Shown: one piece after another, positions 1 through 15,190 of the stretch | Numbering within the stretch: the stretch's first letter is position 1 | How the letters are laid out: every line of letters begins with the position of its first letter | Origin: a virus | Length of the DNA stretch: 64,000 nucleotides | Virus record (IMG/VR): IMGVR_UViG_3300028569_000023 | Location: 1-64,000 of that record | Strand: one strand, 5' to 3' | Position numbers and translations under genes: made by a program | Notes under the pieces: generated by a model | What the model was told of the DNA's origin: nothing | Seen by the model: the letters and a program-made list of their open reading frames with translations, nothing else | Database searches by the model: none

Positions 1-18
1 AACACATACCCCCCCCCT

Positions 19-185
19 AGCAATAACCATGCCAAGTAATAGAACTCCGAAGCTCATGCAATAACTATACTAACCGTACAACTGTATGGTATAACAAAGC
101 GTATGCAAGGATCGTACCTGGTACAGAAGTTGCAGAGAGATGCAAGATCTATGCCAATGGTCCATCCTATGCAATAGCCATGCTA
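19..185. promoter_or_regulatory. Array of sigma54 (RpoN) -24/-12-like motifs
   Basis: Consensus TGGCACGNNNNTTGCW. Minus strand: 19-34 TGGCATGGTTATTGCT, 57-72 TAGTATAGTTATTGCA, 104-119 AGGTACGATCCTTGCA, 141-156 TGGCATAGATCTTGCA, 170-185 TAGCATGGCTATTGCA. Plus strand: 119-134 TGGTACAGAAGTTGCA, 158-173 TGGTCCATCCTATGCA. Confidence 0.75.
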
Positions 186-333
186 GCGAAATAATATTTC
201 GTTGTGACGATATGTGACCATATATGTTATATCTAAACAATCCTAACACTCCTATATATACATGATGCGATAACACACCCTGAAGAACTATTAGACACTG
301 ACTAAACTATAACACCACCATAATCCCTAATGA

Positions 334-414
334 TAACAATGCGTTATAGCTAAGTAGTTGATATGTGCTGTCTAATACGTAAACAGGGTATATTCTAATA
401 GTTTCAATTAGTTA
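334..414. promoter_or_regulatory. IHF-consensus sites
   Basis: WATCAANNNNTTR: perfect at 351-363 (minus, TATCAACTACTTA); one mismatch at 334-346 and 402-414 (plus). Confidence 0.5.
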
Positions 415-419
415 AGTCC

Positions 420-435
420 TGGTATGGTATTAGCA
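420..435 (+). promoter_or_regulatory. Candidate sigma54 early promoter
   Basis: TGGTATGGTATTAGCA has correct GG-N10-GC spacing, lies just downstream of IHF-like sites and points into the early transcript. Confidence 0.55.
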
Positions 436-446
436 ACATACCTAAT

Positions 447-700
447 CAGAACACGCTGAACGTTAGCAGAATGGTCCTAGTCGTGAGACTCGGATATCAA
501 ACGAAAAACTCGACACCTAATAAACACTGTAAGTGTGATTCGAGCTAACTATATACCACGCGCTAACACCGCTTAGACGTATAGTTAGATGAGACCGAAA
601 CTCTCATTATAACCTTGCTTAGAATAGAGCTACCGAGGTCACTGGAACTTCGCGATTGTGCGAATGATTCTACACCTTAGGAGAACACCTCAGGCAAGGC
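447..700 (+). ncRNA. Structured leader RNA / candidate ncRNA
   Basis: ORF-free run of consecutive hairpins: AGTC-GTGA-GACT, CTCGA/TCGAG, CTAACTATA/TATAGTTAG, ATGAGA/TCTCAT and a long CCTTGC...GCAAGG domain. Confidence 0.5.
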
Positions 701-703
701 ATA

Positions 704-778
704 ACACGAAAAGCGGGGCTTAGGTCCCGCTTAGACGCGAATGAGTCTATAACGCGTCCTGATGAGTGTAAAGACTTA
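704..778 (+). ncRNA. Hammerhead ribozyme, type II with pseudoknot
   Basis: ACAC-GAAA-stem III (712-719/724-731)-UA cleavage after 733-stem I (GACGCG/CGCGTC)-CUGAUGA (759-765)-GUGU; loop I UGAGUCU pairs with 3' AGACUUA. Confidence 0.93.
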
Positions 779-797
779 ATAACTAAGGAGTTATAAC

Positions 798-947
798 ATG
801 ATCAAACGAGTCGAACAAAGTGACGCAGTTATCTTCGGAAAGACTTTCAAAGTGAAACGTGGCACAAAAATCCTTGTTAAGGGCAAGTTAAGCATTGAAT
901 CTATTGACGCTTTGATTCGCTGCGGCTTTACAATCGTTTATAAATAA
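798..947 (+). CDS. Small early hypothetical protein (49 aa, first gene; not in ORF track)
   Basis: TAAGGAG RBS at 784-790; ORF MIKRVEQSDAVIFGK...VYK*. Confidence 0.75.
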   Translation: MIKRVEQSDAVIFGKTFKVKRGTKILVKGKLSIESIDALIRCGFTIVYK

Positions 948-958
948 GGAGTTATCTT

Positions 959-1159
959 ATGAGAACTATTGAATCTTCACAGTTTCTTAACAATCGTATT
1001 CAAATTGTATATCACGCTGAAAGCGCGGCATATGCTGCAATGGTGAATAATCGGCCTGTTACGGAATACGGCAAGCTTGTACTTGACTCTTCAAAACTTA
1101 ACTTGATAACCTTTGTACGTGAAGCTATTCTTAACAATAAGTTCCCCAAGGTGAAGTAA
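959..1159 (+). CDS. Hypothetical protein
   Basis: TAAGGAG RBS, in early operon. Confidence 0.7.
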   Translation: MRTIESSQFLNNRIQIVYHAESAAYAAMVNNRPVTEYGKLVLDSSKLNLITFVREAILNNKFPKVK

Positions 1160-1223
1160 CATGGTAACGTTTTTGGTTGTCCTATTGATTCTGCACGATG
1201 TCCTATAAGATTAAGGAGATACG

Positions 1224-1598
1224 ATGTCCAATCTTGGAACACTCACAACGAAGCTTTATAAAGAACTTGTTAACAATAGTATGGCTGGAGCTTCGATCAT
1301 GTCCGATGGTAAAATTCCCAAGTCTGGCTTTGCTTTGAGTATTGACCCTGATTTTGAGGAAAAAACAGACGTTCTTAACTTTCACGTTCTCGTAACATAC
1401 GCTTCGAAAGTTGAAAAGTTCCTTAATAAATCAGTAGATAAGGGAATTGGTATCTGGTTCAATGAGTCCGAGGGAATGTTTTATCTTGACGTTATCACTG
1501 TTAAGAAGAGTATTAACGAGGCGATAACACTCGCAAAAATGAACAATCAACTTGCAATCTTCCACCTTAACACAAAACAGGAGATTAAGATTGTATGA
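1224..1598 (+). CDS. Hypothetical phage protein
   Basis: AAGGAG RBS; 124 aa ORF. Confidence 0.75.
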   Translation: MSNLGTLTTKLYKELVNNSMAGASIMSDGKIPKSGFALSIDPDFEEKTDVLNFHVLVTYASKVEKFLNKSVDKGIGIWFNESEGMFYLDVITVKKSINEAITLAKMNNQLAIFHLNTKQEIKIV

Positions 1599-1816
1599 AG
1601 AAAAAATTCTGGTTAATTGCGGATACTTATCATAACGATTATACTAGGGTTTTCGTTGAGGCTATTGACGCTTATAATTTTATTAACAATGCCTTTACAT
1701 TTCCTAATCAGACTGATTTTGTGATTCACGCGAGAGAACTTACCTTGAAAGATCTTGATCTTATCCTAGAGGGAGAGAACGTAGAAGAAACTTGGGAGAA
1801 TGCTAAAAATGTATAA
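1595..1816 (+). CDS. Hypothetical protein
   Basis: ATGA overlap with upstream gene. Confidence 0.65.
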   Translation: MKKKFWLIADTYHNDYTRVFVEAIDAYNFINNAFTFPNQTDFVIHARELTLKDLDLILEGENVEETWENAKNV

Positions 1817-1983
1817 AGTAATTGTTAACGATATTGAACTTCTCTTTAAAGTAGAATCTCCGAAGCTTTTCATTCGTCGCTTTTTAAAGCCGACGCATAT
1901 GGGGCAATGGGTTAAGACTTCGCAAGGTCTTGAATATAACACCACTATTGGCAAGTATTACGTTTTCATTAAGGAGTAGCATT

Positions 1984-2322
1984 ATGTCGGCAAGAACTTA
2001 CAATCTTTATAAACCTAAGAAATACGGTAACGTGCAAGTCCAATTAAGCGAAGATAAAGAAACGATTAAGGTTTATCTTCATGATCATAACGTTCTAAGT
2101 TTCAATCCTCGCACAAAGGAACTTGTTCTTAACGCTTGTGAGTGGCATACAATGACTACTACGACTGCGATTAATACCGCGTTAAAACAAATTGACTTGC
2201 CCTATTATGTATTCAGAAAAGATGGTATGATTTTTGTATCAGGCTTTGAAAACGTTTTCGAGAAGGTACAATTCTTGAGCGCAAAAATGCGAGTCACAAG
2301 CGTAGGCCTTGAAAAGGTATAA
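1984..2322 (+). CDS. Hypothetical phage early protein
   Basis: AAGGAG RBS before ATG at 1984 (start revised from track). Confidence 0.7.
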   Translation: MSARTYNLYKPKKYGNVQVQLSEDKETIKVYLHDHNVLSFNPRTKELVLNACEWHTMTTTTAINTALKQIDLPYYVFRKDGMIFVSGFENVFEKVQFLSAKMRVTSVGLEKV

Positions 2323-2323
2323 C

Positions 2324-2344
2324 TTTCTAGAGAATCTTAATACC
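2324..2344 (+). repeat. Intergenic element copy 1 (TTTCTAGAGAATCTTAATACC)
   Basis: Other copies at 3843, 6912 and 11078. Confidence 0.85.
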
Positions 2345-2386
2345 GCCTTTTCTATAACGTTCTTAACTTAACAATGGGAGAGAATT

Positions 2387-2965
2387 ATGCGAGTTATCAC
2401 ACAACAAACAGAAGTGTTTAAATTCGAGGAACTTGAAGATTCTGTTAAGACAAAGGTTATCGATAAGTTTCGAGACTTTAACTTGGACCATACGTGGTGG
2501 GAATTCTGCGAGGAGAATATTAAGAATGATCTTGAGAAGATCGGCCTTAGACTTGATAAAGCCTACTTTTCAGGCTTTTGTTCCCAAGGTGATGGGGCTT
2601 GTCTAGAAGTAACGCTGATGGATTATGAAAAACTTATCCCTAAACTTAAAGAACGTGGCGTGCCGATGCGTGAAATTGTTCTCGCGAGGAAACTTGGATT
2701 AAGCTTTGATACTAAACACTCGGGACATTATTATCATGAGAATTCATTGCGTTATAACATTGACGCCGATTATTATCCTCATAAACGGCACGAGAAAACT
2801 TGGAATGATCTTGAAGATACTGTTAAGGAACTTGTGCAAGATCTAAGCCGTGATTATTACAGAACACTCGAAAAGGAATACGAGTATTTGACAAGCGATG
2901 AAATGATCAAAGAATCTCTTGAAGCTAATGAATACGAATTTAAGAAAGACGGGAGTATTTTCTAA
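2387..2965 (+). CDS. Hypothetical phage protein
   Basis: 192 aa ORF with GGAG RBS; FSGFCSQGDGA motif. Confidence 0.8.
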   Translation: MRVITQQTEVFKFEELEDSVKTKVIDKFRDFNLDHTWWEFCEENIKNDLEKIGLRLDKAYFSGFCSQGDGACLEVTLMDYEKLIPKLKERGVPMREIVLARKLGLSFDTKHSGHYYHENSLRYNIDADYYPHKRHEKTWNDLEDTVKELVQDLSRDYYRTLEKEYEYLTSDEMIKESLEANEYEFKKDGSIF

Positions 2966-3168
2966 TGGAAATCAAAGGATTAACCGTACAAGAATTAAGT
3001 CTTATTAAATCAGGACTTGAGCTTAATTCGAAGAACTTAGAAAGACTGCGCGATGCCTGTCAAGATTCTGAATTGAATGCTATATTTAGCAATAGACGTA
3101 ACCTTAATAGAAAACTTTACAAAGAAATATCAGACGCTATACTGGAATTAACTGAGGAGAATGAATAA
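2965..3168 (+). CDS. Hypothetical protein
   Basis: TAATG coupling. Confidence 0.65.
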   Translation: MEIKGLTVQELSLIKSGLELNSKNLERLRDACQDSELNAIFSNRRNLNRKLYKEISDAILELTEENE

Positions 3169-3470
3169 TGAAAACGTATAACTTTGAAGTTCGGGACCTT
3201 GGTGATATTGACGTGGGACTTTTGCCTACAATCTCCACGATAACAATTAATTCAGAGAATGAACTAAGCGATGAACAAATACAAATCACTAAACTTTTCC
3301 TGCAAGATCTTTTCGACTCCGCTACGATGGTTGAAGTTCTAGACGACAATGATCTTAGAAAAGAAATCGAGGACCGGCTAGAGCTACAAGAAATGATTGA
3401 CCTAGAGAGACAAGCGGAATTCGAGAATAACGTGCTTAATGAAACGTTGAAAGTCTGGAGAGTAATGTAA
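3168..3470 (+). CDS. Hypothetical protein
   Basis: GAGGAG RBS, TAATG coupling. Confidence 0.7.
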   Translation: MKTYNFEVRDLGDIDVGLLPTISTITINSENELSDEQIQITKLFLQDLFDSATMVEVLDDNDLRKEIEDRLELQEMIDLERQAEFENNVLNETLKVWRVM

Positions 3471-3709
3471 TGAAAGTTAAGGAGTTAATTGAATCTTTAC
3501 AGAAACTCCCTCAAGATGATGAAATCTTTGTAGGTGATCATACTTATGGTACGCAATTGCTTTACATTCCCGACCCTAAGCACGTAGATATATTGACTAA
3601 TGCGTACAATGAAGACTATGAAGTAACGATATACGATTTTAAATCAGAGGAAGATACTGAGGACTATTTCACAGACGCTACTAATTTGAGAAAAGGATGG
3701 CTTTTATGA
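3470..3709 (+). CDS. Hypothetical protein
   Basis: TAATG coupling; MKVKELIESLQKLP start. Confidence 0.7.
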   Translation: MKVKELIESLQKLPQDDEIFVGDHTYGTQLLYIPDPKHVDILTNAYNEDYEVTIYDFKSEEDTEDYFTDATNLRKGWLL

Positions 3710-3842
3710 GAACTTTAAGTGTACAATTTCTTGACAGTGTTGACTCGACTGGATTCTACTATTATCTGATTCGCCGCGCTAATGGCAAACTAATGGCACG
3801 CCCTATTCACAATCAACCAAAGTATCAATACAATAACTAAAC

Positions 3843-3900
3843 TTTCTAGAGAATCTTAATACCCTCTTGACATTGCTTGGTTTTTAAGTACCGGGCGCGG
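3843..3900 (+). repeat. Intergenic element copy 2
   Basis: TTTCTAGAGAATCTTAATACCCTC...CCGGGCG. Confidence 0.85.
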
Positions 3901-3927
3901 GACCAATTTTAACATAAGGAGTTTTAC

Positions 3928-6015
3928 ATGAGACTAAATAACGCAGTGAATACACTTGAAACTAATGCTCAAACTGTATCGACAAACTTCGGAATTGGCG
4001 ATGTCGGCATGGTTATTGAAATTCTTAGGTCTAAGCTTTACTCTCATCCTATTAGGACTTTGGTACAAGAGTACGCTTGCAATGGCCGCGATGCAATGCG
4101 TGAAGTTAAGTCGCAAGATCGCTTGATTATAACAGCGCCTACAACTTTTAATCCAGAATTCCGAGTGAGGGACTTCGGACCCGGTATCTCGCCCGAACGT
4201 ATTGAGAACGTATTCGTTCTTTACGGCGCGAGCACTAAGCGTAAAGATAATACGCAAACTGGCGGCTTTGGTATCGGTGCTAAATCGGCTTGGAGTTATA
4301 CCGATAGCTTTACCATTACGACATTCATTGACGGCACTAAGCGCGAATACGTGGCGCATATCGGTACTAGTCAAAACGGTAGCCTTGACTTTGTATCAGA
4401 GTCTAAAACAGACGAAAAGAATGGCACAGAGATTAAGATCGCAGTGAATCTTCAAGATATTGTGAAGTTCCAAAAGGCAATTCAACGCGCAGTATTCTTT
4501 TGGGAAGAGAAAGAAAAACCAGAACTTCGTTGTGTACAAGTGCCTGATCTTTCTAAGCAAAACGGTGATGAACTTCGAATTGAGGAACTCCTTATCACCG
4601 ATAAGAGCTTGGATTTTGTCGAGTCTAATAACGGTTACTACGGATCACGCGGTGGTTTCTTTCTGATTGTTGACGGCGTACCGTATCCGATCGATGATGA
4701 ACTTGTTAATGAAAACGAGAGTCTAAAGAACTTTCGTACTAAAGTATCGCACATAGTTAACGTATTTTGTAGCGTACAAACTGGATTTGTTGAAGTAAGT
4801 GCTAATCGTGAGCAACTCTCTGATTCTAAAGCTACCCGCACTGCGCTTAATCTTATCGCAAAACGGTGGACTAATCTTCTCGACAAGTATCATTCCGATA
4901 AGTTCCAAGATTGTAAAACCGTAATGGATTATCTCAAAGCTCAAGCTACATTCGAAAAGGTATTTGTTCGCTCAAGTTTCTCGAATGAAGTGGACGGTTA
5001 TAAGATTAACGATTGTCGAGTTACGAGTGACTTGTTTGATAAGACTAAGTGTACGGAAGTATTCGGAACTTCAAACGATAACTTGAAATACTCTGATAAG
5101 ACTAAGAGAGTATTTCATATCGACGAACTCCAAACGGTTTATATCGATGATTTGAAAAGCGATACGTCAAAGGTCGAGAGGGCAGCAGTGTTGAGGGGAG
5201 CAGTTAAAACCACTGGTAAAAAGAACACGATACTTGTATTATCTAATGGAATACACGTTACTAAATACGATAATAATCACAAGGCTACTAGTACATTCAA
5301 AGCAATGACCGATGCGGAATGGGATAAGCTTGTATTGGATCTTGAAATTAAGAAACTGTCAAGTGTAACTCCCGATTATCGTGCAAAGAAAACAAGATCG
5401 GTTAACTCTTCGGGACAAAAACAAAAAGGCGAGATCACTGTATGGCGCAATAGCAGTGGCAATAAAAAGAATATCGATCTTGATAATGTCACTTTGAAAT
5501 ACGTATATCTTAAACTTGATGATACGGAAAAGCATCGCGAGTTTCAGGGAGTGGTTCATCTTATGGGATACGAGCTTGTACGAATGGGAGACGGATCGAT
5601 TAAGAAGATTAAAGATGACGCTGATTTCATGGCATTTGATAAGTTCGTAGAAAGTCTTAAAGATAATAAGAAGTTAAAGCAAGCTTGTATTGATCGTCAG
5701 TTTATCAATAGTAACTGTTATATTCAGCAACTAGTTCGAATCAAAAAAGAAATCACTAATCCGGACATTAAAAAGATGCTTGATAAAACTAATGTTACAG
5801 CACAAGGTCATTACGAAAACGGCATAGCGCTATCTCCCTCTGTTATTACCCTTGTATCTTCATGGGATGGAATGAAACAAATGGAAAAAGAAATCGAAGA
5901 ATTTGCTAAACTAGTTAAGACAAAATATGCTATCGTTACTAATGTAAATCAATATGCATCCGGTACTGATCAAGAAAACGAAAACATCATCTGGTATATC
6001 AATAACCGTAAATAA
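3928..6015 (+). CDS. rIIA: RIIA-like protein (N-terminal GHKL/HATPase domain)
   Basis: LYSHPIRTLVQEYACNGRDA, VRDFGPGIS, STK...GGFGIGAKS GHKL motifs; followed by an rIIB-like gene. Confidence 0.85.
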   Translation: MRLNNAVNTLETNAQTVSTNFGIGDVGMVIEILRSKLYSHPIRTLVQEYACNGRDAMREVKSQDRLIITAPTTFNPEFRVRDFGPGISPERIENVFVLYGASTKRKDNTQTGGFGIGAKSAWSYTDSFTITTFIDGTKREYVAHIGTSQNGSLDFVSESKTDEKNGTEIKIAVNLQDIVKFQKAIQRAVFFWEEKEKPELRCVQVPDLSKQNGDELRIEELLITDKSLDFVESNNGYYGSRGGFFLIVDGVPYPIDDELVNENESLKNFRTKVSHIVNVFCSVQTGFVEVSANREQLSDSKATRTALNLIAKRWTNLLDKYHSDKFQDCKTVMDYLKAQATFEKVFVRSSFSNEVDGYKINDCRVTSDLFDKTKCTEVFGTSNDNLKYSDKTKRVFHIDELQTVYIDDLKSDTSKVERAAVLRGAVKTTGKKNTILVLSNGIHVTKYDNNHKATSTFKAMTDAEWDKLVLDLEIKKLSSVTPDYRAKKTRSVNSSGQKQKGEITVWRNSSGNKKNIDLDNVTLKYVYLKLDDTEKHREFQGVVHLMGYELVRMGDGSIKKIKDDADFMAFDKFVESLKDNKKLKQACIDRQFINSNCYIQQLVRIKKEITNPDIKKMLDKTNVTAQGHYENGIALSPSVITLVSSWDGMKQMEKEIEEFAKLVKTKYAIVTNVNQYASGTDQENENIIWYINNRK

Positions 6016-6026
6016 GGAGAAACAAA

Positions 6027-6923
6027 ATGTCACACGTAAAATACCATGTCCTACCTAATAGTATCGTTCTTAATTTTCACGGTAAAACAATGTCAATTCC
6101 CCGAGATGACAAGCGTTATGATAAAGTTCTAGGTCTTATTAGGTCGGGACAATTGGCAGATATTCCCGCAGCTATCGATCTGGAAACAATGTTTAAAGGT
6201 ACTAGGATGTCACTGGTGGACGGCGTTGTACAAATCGACGGCGATGAACTCCCGAATGCCCTATCTAAAAAGATTCTACTCCTCAAAGAACAAGACCTAC
6301 CGCTGGATTCGATTGTTAATTTCTGGGATAGACTTAAACTTAATCCAAGCTTTAACTCTCGTAAACAACTGTATGATTTCCTTGAATTTAATCAACACCC
6401 ATTGACAGAGGATGGCAAGTTCATTGCATATCGCGGAGTGACAGAGGATTTCAAAGATATTCATTCTAAGACTTTCGATAATTCAGTAGGCAGTGTTTGC
6501 GAAATGCCCCGCGATAAGGTGGATGATAACCCTAATAATACTTGTAGCTTCGGACTACACGTAGCATCTCACTCATACGCTAAAGGATTTGGACCTAAGC
6601 TTGTAGAAGTTGAAGTAGACCCGGCAGATGTCATAGCAGTGCCTACCGATTATAACGGTACAAAGATGCGCGTCTGTAAATTTAAGGTTATCGCACTGGG
6701 CGAGAACGAACGTACCGAAGTTCTATACGGTCATATCCCTGAATCAGTTGATGAAGAAACAAGCGATGACAACTCTGAGGAACTCGCGTTAATCGAACAA
6801 GAAATGAATGAAGTCGAAACTAGTATCTTGAACTTTGACCCGCGTCATGACAGTATTGATTATCTAATCGAGATGCGCGATAGACTCGAAAGACTTGAAA
6901 ACGAGAAGAGTTTTCTAGAGTAA
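6027..6923 (+). CDS. rIIB: RIIB-like protein
   Basis: NPS...QLYDFL...LTEDGKFIAYRGV, CSFGLHV, VPTDYNGTKMRVC motifs; adjacent to rIIA. Confidence 0.85.
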   Translation: MSHVKYHVLPNSIVLNFHGKTMSIPRDDKRYDKVLGLIRSGQLADIPAAIDLETMFKGTRMSLVDGVVQIDGDELPNALSKKILLLKEQDLPLDSIVNFWDRLKLNPSFNSRKQLYDFLEFNQHPLTEDGKFIAYRGVTEDFKDIHSKTFDNSVGSVCEMPRDKVDDNPNNTCSFGLHVASHSYAKGFGPKLVEVEVDPADVIAVPTDYNGTKMRVCKFKVIALGENERTEVLYGHIPESVDEETSDDNSEELALIEQEMNEVETSILNFDPRHDSIDYLIEMRDRLERLENEKSFLE

Positions 6924-6986
6924 TTTAATACCCTCTAGTTTCTATCCAAACTTTAAGACCGGGCGGGGAACGAAATCTCCGCTCGG
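6912..6986 (+). repeat. Intergenic element copy 3 with downstream hairpin
   Basis: TTTCTAGAGTAATTTAATACCCTC followed by hairpin CCGGGCGGGGA-ACGAAA-TCTCCGCTCGG (6959-6986). Confidence 0.8.
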
Positions 6987-7000
6987 AATAGGAGAATGAA

Positions 7001-7216
7001 ATGGGTTTTCTTAAACAAAAACAATTACCTGAAGACGACGAAAAAGAATTGCGCAGACTCGCGTGGGTTCAACTTCGAAAACATCTTGACTATGAAGCTC
7101 TTGTATTGTCATATGTAGATGCGTATGAAGTAGGGGCGAGATCGGGATTTACAGACGGTTATCTTAAAGGTCTTGAAGTAGGGATCGGTAAAGGATTGGA
7201 GACAAGCGATGAATAA
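7001..7216 (+). CDS. Hypothetical protein
   Basis: AGGAG RBS. Confidence 0.65.
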   Translation: MGFLKQKQLPEDDEKELRRLAWVQLRKHLDYEALVLSYVDAYEVGARSGFTDGYLKGLEVGIGKGLETSDE

Positions 7217-7922
7217 CAAATACGAATTTACAGGACAGACTATCGTATCGTTCGGTATTACTCTAAAACAGATTAGACGTAAATCAGACGGACTAATCGG
7301 TGGATACATTGAGAGCGAGAAGAACTTGAGCTTCGATGGTGACTCTTGGGTTTCCGGTAAAGCTCAGGTTTCAGGTAACGCTCAGGTTTACGGTAACGCT
7401 CAGGTTTCCGGTAACGCTCTGGTTTTCGGTAACGCTCAGGTTTACGGTGACGCTCTGGTTTTCGGTAACGCTCTGGTTTACGGTAACGCTCTGGTTTTCG
7501 GTAACGCTCTGGTTTACGGTGACGCTCTGGTTTTCGGTAACGCTCAGGTTTACGGTGACGCTCAGGTTTCCGGTAACGCTCTGGTTTTCGGTAACGCTCA
7601 GGTTTACGGTAACGCTCTGGTTTTCGGTAACGCTCTGGTTTACGGTGACGCTCTGGTTTTCGGTAACGCTCTGGTTTACGGTGACGCTGTTATTAAGTCC
7701 AAAGCATGTCTAATCGTTCTAGTACTAGGACTTAGCTATAACGTAACAATTACACCGCAGAACGTTTCGATTGGTTGTAAACTGTATGACTATAAGACAC
7801 TGAGGCATATGACGAAAGAACAAGCTATTAACGAAGGTATTTTAGAAAGCGAAGTATCGTTTTATCACGCCATGATAATGGAAAGTCTTAATGAAATGGA
7901 GAGACGCAATGGAACGAAATAA
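7209..7922 (+). CDS. Hexapeptide-repeat (beta-helix) phage protein
   Basis: GGYIESEKNL followed by ~19 G[ND]A[LQ]V[FYS] repeats and C-terminal IGC motif. Confidence 0.85.
   Translation: MNNKYEFTGQTIVSFGITLKQIRRKSDGLIGGYIESEKNLSFDGDSWVSGKAQVSGNAQVYGNAQVSGNALVFGNAQVYGDALVFGNALVYGNALVFGNALVYGDALVFGNAQVYGDAQVSGNALVFGNAQVYGNALVFGNALVYGDALVFGNALVYGDAVIKSKACLIVLVLGLSYNVTITPQNVSIGCKLYDYKTLRHMTKEQAINEGILESEVSFYHAMIMESLNEMERRNGTK
7338..7688 (+). repeat. 18-bp coding tandem repeat (~19.5 units)
   Basis: Near-identical units such as GGTAACGCTCTGGTTTTC. Confidence 0.95.
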
Positions 7923-15087: not shown

Positions 15088-15190
15088 AGACGGTTGACTG
15101 AGTGGTTTAAGGTTGACCCAGATAAACGGGATGTCCGGTTCTGAGGACTGCATGGATGTTCCGCCATACGTTCGAATCGTATACCGTCTA
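15088..15190 (+). tRNA. Atypical class II tRNA-like RNA (anticodon undetermined, possibly UGA/Ser)
   Basis: Acceptor AGACGGT/ACCGTCT, D-arm ACTGAGTGGTTTAAGGT, T-arm ATACG-TTCGAAT-CGTAT; oversized non-canonical centre; no encoded CCA. Confidence 0.7.

Follow-up and report, generated by a model that had tools for sequence, protein, structure and literature searches.

That phage transcripts contain hammerhead ribozymes has been recognised since 2011, and their purpose there is still open (Perreault et al. 2011, PMC3088659; PMC6765202). In the parts of Perreault et al. that deal with the phage examples, type II hammerheads (Rfam family RF02276) lie in phage transcripts, where several ribozymes often flank single genes, as is also the case in four of the related loci described below. 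The type II consensus given there includes a pseudoknot between loop I and the 3′ tail, which is described as common in this type and not obligatory. A processing role for the phage hammerheads was proposed in the passages on function of the same paper, and it was proposed again in those of a 2019 review (PMC6765202). The locus reported here has the same core, the same open stem II and the same loop I/tail pseudoknot as that description, but its ribozyme is not intergenic in the sense of the examples described in PMC3088659; it stands at the start of an early operon, preceded by a folded leader of 257 nt that contains no ORF. It also differs from RF02276 in that the hammerhead is unscored by the family model, while the leader belongs to no Rfam family at all. 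The stretch is a single-sequence example so far among hammerhead-processed phage transcripts, which are an already known kind.

Two other groups of RNA elements are close to parts of this arrangement. RiboJ is a synthetic ribozyme insulator; it is engineered, is built on a different hammerhead type and has no long structured leader upstream. Its ribozyme removes the promoter-proximal leader and leaves an mRNA with a 5′-hydroxyl and a hairpin, which is the same outcome as in the cis-acting account favoured below, and the likeness implies no natural function. CsrB and RsmZ (GGA motifs) and CrcZ (A-rich motifs, AAnAAnAA; sigma-54 promoter) are protein-sponge small RNAs. They resemble the stretch in having tandem hairpins and a repeated short motif that is unpaired, and CrcZ also in its sigma-54-type promoter, whereas here the motif is AACAC, in five copies only, and a ribozyme, not a terminator, would generate the 3′ end. 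A sponge of the CsrB/RsmZ type proper was rejected, the roughly four GGA counted by eye in 447-703 not being placed systematically in loops.

The window, that is, the whole stretch of DNA analysed, comprises the first 64 kb (64,000 nt) of an 86,035-nt IMG/VR virus record of an uncultured lake phage. Positions 1-135 of the window are repeated at the end of the record (genome 85902-86035), so that the two ends overlap by about 134 nt; a C-run has 9 C in one of the overlapping copies and 8 in the other, which is probably the reason for the linear class of the record. Moreover, a contig of 85,645 nt that is independent of the record and comes from two lake-water runs contains positions 1-1200 internally, at its positions 6204-7402. 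It follows that position 1 reflects a cut made in assembly and not a physical end, and the "terminal takeover module" of the initial annotation is not borne out, the stretch being internal in the genome. The stretch itself was found in four DNA sequencing runs from 3 studies, with identical sequence and no variant; the runs listed as containing it included none of RNA.

The structured stretch lies within a gap of about 930 nt between the late (minus-strand) and early (plus-strand) gene blocks, which are divergent; the genome has no other large gap free of genes. On its late side stands a minus-strand gene of 188 aa (genome 85200-85766), which closes the terminase/portal/tail block; on its early side the first plus-strand ORF is followed by further small ORFs and rIIA. 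No ORF of at least 30 aa overlaps 277-790 on either strand. Pfam and PHROG searches said nothing useful about genes 1-9 and the 188-aa neighbour, gene 1 being without any match, and a domain search of the phage genome found no RtcB. The phage is distant from those in culture: blastn of window positions 1-4000 against GenBank phages gave no match, and the terminase of the closest cultured relative is 28% identical. The coordinates of all features are collected in Table 1.

Table 1. Features of the late/early gap and its early border, in window coordinates.
Feature	Position	Strand	Basis
Sigma-54-type -24/-12 box, TGG-N10-GC, candidate early promoter	420-435	+	sequence reading
ORF-free structured leader, tandem local hairpins	447-703	+	folding versus shuffles, ORF list
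Weak hairpin	455-467	+	MFE fold
GUGA-loop hairpin	474-495	+	MFE fold
Hairpin enclosing ACAC/GUGU	509-544	+	MFE fold
10-bp hairpin	545-588	+	MFE fold
AUGAGA/UCUCAU hairpin	589-608	+	MFE fold
Long irregular hairpin	613-699	+	MFE fold
Type II hammerhead ribozyme, complete	704-778	+	own descriptor, sequence reading
Stem II, 4 bp ACAC/GUGU, open	704-707/766-769	+	sequence
GAA core	708-710	+	sequence
Stem III hairpin, 9 bp, A711-U732 pair	711-732	+	sequence, fold
Predicted cleavage site	after A733	+	motif
Stem I, 6 bp	734-739/753-758	+	sequence, fold
CUGAUGA core	759-765	+	sequence
Pseudoknot loop I/3′ tail, 7 bp	742-748 with 772-778	+	pairing versus shuffled tails
Small hairpin with Shine-Dalgarno AAGGAG	779-794	+	sequence reading, fold of 447-800
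Gene 1, first early ORF, 49 aa	798-947	+	ORF list

The hammerhead contains every position of the conserved core (C3 U4 G5 A6 N7 G8 A9, G12 A13 A14, the pair A15.1-U16.1, and an H17 other than G), and with stems I and III closed by loops and stem II open its topology is that of type II. A pseudoknot of the same 7-bp length was reached by 1 of 200 shuffled tails. On both strands of the 86-kb genome the descriptor written for this motif matched this hammerhead only; it found no second hammerhead upstream, and there was no closed-stem-II core in the genome. The Rfam model RF02276 gave no match in 680-800 and none genome-wide at E≤10, but its silence is weak evidence, because at the gathering score (threshold 37 bits) it found just 1 of the 15 type II motifs that the descriptor located in nine related loci (L007, L011, L048, L060, L065, L072, L077, L081 and L082), namely that in L011 with 40.6 bits, and missed the other 14; the model seems to have low sensitivity in this group of phages. 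The hammerhead is credible as the element that sets the 3′ end of the leader, the cleavage itself being predicted from the motif.

The ribozyme is also conserved in the phage family. The comparison set consisted of 80 terminase-related IMG/VR loci (1.02 Mb), with terminases 46-66% identical. Type II motifs were found by the descriptor at 17 sites in 11 of the 80 loci, with differing stem sequences; all 17 are on the early-gene strand and 0 on the other, and five shuffled replicates of the loci gave 1, 1, 0, 1 and 1 motifs. Since pairing is required by the descriptor, the evidence for conservation is the count and the strand bias and not the pairs; two of the loci, L042 and L043, have the same sequence. 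The hammerheads of the relatives are mostly placed between small early ORFs. In L042, L048 and L077 an ORF of about 90-101 aa stands directly 5′ of the ribozyme, and in L011, L060, L065 and L082 two type II hammerheads bracket a single ORF of about 93-106 aa. This position of the ribozymes directly between small early ORFs fits the processing role as set out in the parts on function of PMC3088659 and PMC6765202.

The bracketed regions are L011 8214-8640 (reverse-complement), L060 10924-11458, L065 10710-11313 and L082 13000-13592; the bracketed ORFs of L060 and L082 are 47% identical, and an excised one-gene RNA of this kind would have a 5′-hydroxyl and a cyclic phosphate. In addition, compact closed-stem-II cores (CUGAUGAG-UUC-AAAA-GAA-CGAAA type) were seen on the early-gene strand of L042/L043 (reverse-complement 15158-15180), L044 (7221-7243) and L048 (12320-12342), from which it follows that the phage family mixes type II with type I or III hammerheads. 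Repeats of the stem II strand upstream of the relatives' hammerheads were looked for and not found.

As for the leader, the stretch 447-703 is truly and unusually structured on the plus strand. All the stems named in the initial annotation were recovered, both in the sequence and in the minimum-free-energy (MFE) fold, and the folding energy that was to be compared with dinucleotide shuffles turned out better than in all of them: for 447-733 on the plus strand it is -84.1 kcal/mol (z -4.08), a value that none of 200 shuffles equalled. When stem III is left out, 447-703 still reaches -67.7 kcal/mol (z -3.14, 2 of 200 shuffles), with MFE and centroid structures that are the same, and 447-800 reaches z -4.47 (0 of 100 shuffles). 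The leader fold contains 75 bp over 150 of its 257 nt (34 A-U, 34 G-C and 7 G-U). The claim of a discrete RNA of about 290 nt at 447-733 holds in so far as this segment is folded and ORF-free, but the hairpin at its end, 711-732, belongs to the hammerhead as stem III, and the non-ribozyme part is 447-703, of about 257 nt. When 447-800 is folded as a whole, stems I and III form together with the leader hairpins, a 3-bp contact of 447-449 with the ribozyme core being the only link. The predicted architecture is a row of local hairpins without any multi-way junction, and in this it looks unlike a riboswitch aptamer and also unlike a large ribozyme.

The rank of this fold in the genome was obtained with a script of our own, in which 334 non-overlapping 257-nt segments of the plus strand were each compared with 20 shuffles. 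For 447-703 the script gave z -4.38 (40 shuffles) and the folding tool -3.14 (200 shuffles), and the script values, in the genome scan as well as in the relatives, therefore serve as ranks only. Read as ranks, the segment 515-771 (z -4.34) is the second lowest of the 334, against a background with mean -0.34 and sd 1.15. The lowest is 6940-7196, which is mostly coding. Around it, 6924-7216 is an apparent intergenic stretch after rIIB, with a G+C hairpin at about 6958-6990, and by eye 7001-7216 holds an ORF of about 70 codons with a good ribosome-binding site. Rfam 15 at the gathering score gave no family match in the window, the leader included, and at E≤10 in 1-1200 only two chance snoRNA matches outside the stretch; the Rfam scan that the initial annotation had named as a check accordingly leaves 447-703 in no known RNA family.

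The structure signal begins at about 447, and the strand on which it appears bears on whether the element acts as RNA or as DNA. The gap could instead be a DNA-level element (a replication origin, a packaging site or a protein-binding array) in which the hairpins would simply reflect inverted repeats, without a role of their own, and AACAC/ATAACAC would be bound as sites with an orientation. Such an element would be at home in the only large gene-free gap, between divergent blocks and beside sigma-54-type repeats and an A+T-rich segment, and AACAC continues upstream of the folded part (at 1, 245, 272 and 311); with 68 of the 75 predicted leader pairs being Watson-Crick, the pairing is possible in DNA too. 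However, the excess over shuffles is confined to the plus strand (z -3.14 versus -1.04 for the minus strand of 447-703, where 30 of 200 shuffles are as good; for the minus strand of 447-733, z -1.44 and 16 of 200), though with so many Watson-Crick pairs this asymmetry comes mostly from the weakly folding shuffles of an A/C-rich plus strand and is no proof of pairs possible in RNA only. Moreover, the folded stretch stops exactly where the ribozyme of the same strand starts, the upstream part of the gap is unstructured (146-446, plus strand, z -0.39, an ordinary value), and the AACAC spacing has no periodic iteron pattern. A DNA-level role is on this evidence unlikely.

The reading that is favoured here, with about an even chance of being correct, is that 447-703 is a non-coding folded 5′ leader of the early operon, severed by the type II hammerhead. 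Its fold is strand-specific and far above background. Transcription of the stretch, its start site, the cleavage and the later roles of both pieces are what we infer. The sigma-54 reference has GG at -24 and GC at -12 with 10 nt between them, in the context TGGCAC-N5-TTGCW. The box at 420-435 reads TGGTAT-GGTAT-TAGCA; the GG-N10-GC spacing is present, with flanks weaker than at 119-134, where the better copy of the box lies, 420-435 being the direct-repeat partner of 117-134. By regex there are 5 sigma-54-type boxes on the plus strand of the 85.9-kb genome, 2 of these in the gap. Four further repeat copies face the late genes (20-35, 58-73, 142-157 and 171-186), two of which are matched by the strict box regex. 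In the relatives, 1-5 near-consensus boxes (TGGCAC-N5-TTGCA) face the early genes, and the order of boxes, then a stretch of 136-490 nt from the last box, then the first hammerhead is seen again in L007, L011, L072 and L081. Near-consensus boxes were noted in the gaps of these four loci and of L060, L007 having five within 200 nt.

No sigma-70-type promoter was found on the plus strand of 1-797. Neither a sigma-54 activator domain (PF00158) nor sigma-70 region 2 was found in the phage, and the lack of a phage-encoded activator makes 420-435 uncertain as an early promoter. A transcription start near 447 from this box is plausible, and the structure signal sets in near there. The defined ends ascribed to the RNA in the initial annotation are thus of unequal standing: the 3′ boundary is supported by a complete type II hammerhead, and the 5′ boundary, given by the sigma-54-type box, is plausible only. 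Promoter-like and terminator-like matches on the minus strand of 711-772 occur at chance frequency and were set aside.

Under the cleaved-leader account, transcription would enter from the late/early gap, probably at the box 420-435, and start near 447. The nascent RNA is predicted by folding to form a string of self-contained local hairpins that do not pair with the ribozyme. The hammerhead would then form stem III, stem I and the pseudoknot and cleave after A733. Since the products are joined by the 4-bp stem II only, they should separate. The leader product would be about 287 nt long (447-733) and would have at its 3′ end the G+C-rich hairpin of stem III (9 bp) and a 2′,3′-cyclic phosphate; the early mRNA would begin with a 5′-hydroxyl and the stem I/pseudoknot fold, 64 nt ahead of the ATG of gene 1. 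The main selected effect would be in cis, that is, the 5′ end of the mRNA would be defined, protected and made independent of the promoter-proximal leader, a role which may be likened to that of the relatives' hammerheads cutting between early cistrons. If the leader is merely discarded, it would be a natural counterpart of the engineered ribozyme insulators. One point against the account is that a purely disposable leader leaves a fold near the top of the genome ranking and five unpaired AACAC unexplained.

The AACAC motif leads to the possibility that the leader product acts in trans. It occurs 5 times in 447-707, a count reached by 2 of 5000 shuffles; the fold leaves each of the four copies within 447-703 unpaired, and copy five consists of the linker and the stem II strand. 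On the plus strand the genome has 70 copies, 9 of them in 1-707 (starts at 1, 245, 272, 311, 450, 523, 565, 684 and 703), an enrichment of about 13-fold, and the reverse complement is absent from 1-800. The longer form ATAACAC stands at 270, 309 and 701. According to this alternative, the stretch would be a discrete trans-acting early ncRNA: the ribozyme would give an RNA of about 287 nt a nuclease-resistant 3′ end without stopping transcription, and AACAC would titrate a host RNA-binding protein or an ACA-cutting endoribonuclease. The exceptional and well-defined fold, with its identical MFE and centroid structures, agrees with this, as do the number of copies, their unpaired state and their bias to one strand; known protein-sponge RNAs, too, are built of tandem independent hairpins.

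The motif count is, however, only modestly significant, because some 5-mer or other reaches five copies in 29 of 1000 shuffles, and with an A/C-rich plus strand the unpaired segments are A/C-rich by default. The four copies upstream of the proposed start would be no less expected of a DNA motif, or of a transcript that is longer. The relatives show neither AACAC enrichment nor a homologous RNA. Complementarity of the stretch to the rest of the phage genome did not go beyond chance, and of 13 early ribosome-binding regions 2 were complementary beyond shuffles (1/200 and 5/200), which is unconvincing after 13 tests; an antisense RNA against phage targets was rejected on the chance-level complementarity. 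A trans-acting ncRNA is accordingly possible but doubtful. Its fullest form, a lineage-specific early ncRNA of about 287 nt for which the hammerhead is a terminator-free 3′-end maker, and which would draw off, as a trans decoy, either an ACA-specific toxin endoribonuclease or an RNA-binding protein of the host, with a cyclic-phosphate-capped G+C hairpin and five single-stranded AACAC, equimolar with the first early mRNA, must be called improbable. If the leader is a stable RNA, the locus would have a ribozyme making the 3′ end of an ncRNA while transcription continues into an mRNA.

Sequence comparison of the leader gave matches to itself only. At 46-66% terminase identity the relatives have no sequence similarity to the stretch, and their gap sequences have almost nothing in common. 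A single-sequence covariance model of 447-703, run over the 80 related loci and the window, matched itself alone, and with the filters off its scores in the gaps of L065, L082 and L072 did not exceed 5.2 bits. Scans of viral, metagenome and genome contigs by rIIA, terminase and the 188-aa neighbour gave no closer relatives. Close protein kin were obtained for two genes only: the 188-aa neighbour has relatives at 88% and 85% identity, on contigs of 6347 and 1064 nt, and the terminase has one at 95%, in Logan only; for rIIA the highest identity is 41%. A hammerhead-anchored DNA pattern retrieved only loci unrelated to this phage, 5 of them viral and 21 from metagenomes. The 257 nt ahead of the first post-gap hammerhead are strongly structured in 2 of 7 loci, L065 (z -4.02) and L082 (z -3.19), and range from +1.20 to -1.52 in the other five, all of these being script values and so ranks; a folded leader is therefore not general in the family. 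The value of the leader is moderate, as a single sequence without comparative support. The phage family offers a clear test layout, in which the gap runs from sigma-54-type boxes through the leader to the first type II hammerhead and the early genes, and the further hammerheads around single small genes in the relatives extend it.

The lack of common gap sequence would be expected if the stretch had no function and were a fast-evolving spacer that folds well by chance, perhaps left over from an early gene that was lost or from a ribozyme copy that decayed; a small ORF often precedes the hammerhead in the relatives, and parts of the hammerhead are copied within the leader. An 11-mer over the cleavage site (727-737) is found again exactly at 569-579, and a 13-mer of stem I/loop I (737-749) recurs at 660-672 with one mismatch. 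Against this stand the rank of the overlapping segment 515-771 in the genome, a tblastn search in which 21 hammerhead-adjacent ORFs from the relatives gave no match in the stretch (best E 0.62), and a similarity to the hammerhead that is marginal, 2 of 300 shuffles reaching it. A pseudogene of the relatives' hammerhead-adjacent ORF and a decayed ribozyme copy were each rejected on these last two results, and the absence of any function is very unlikely. Apart from these questions, the copy at 569-579 might, in principle, offer the ribozyme a second substrate site by pairing with its stem III and stem I strands, and the shorter motif GCTTAGA occurs 3 times, at 571, 617 and 729.
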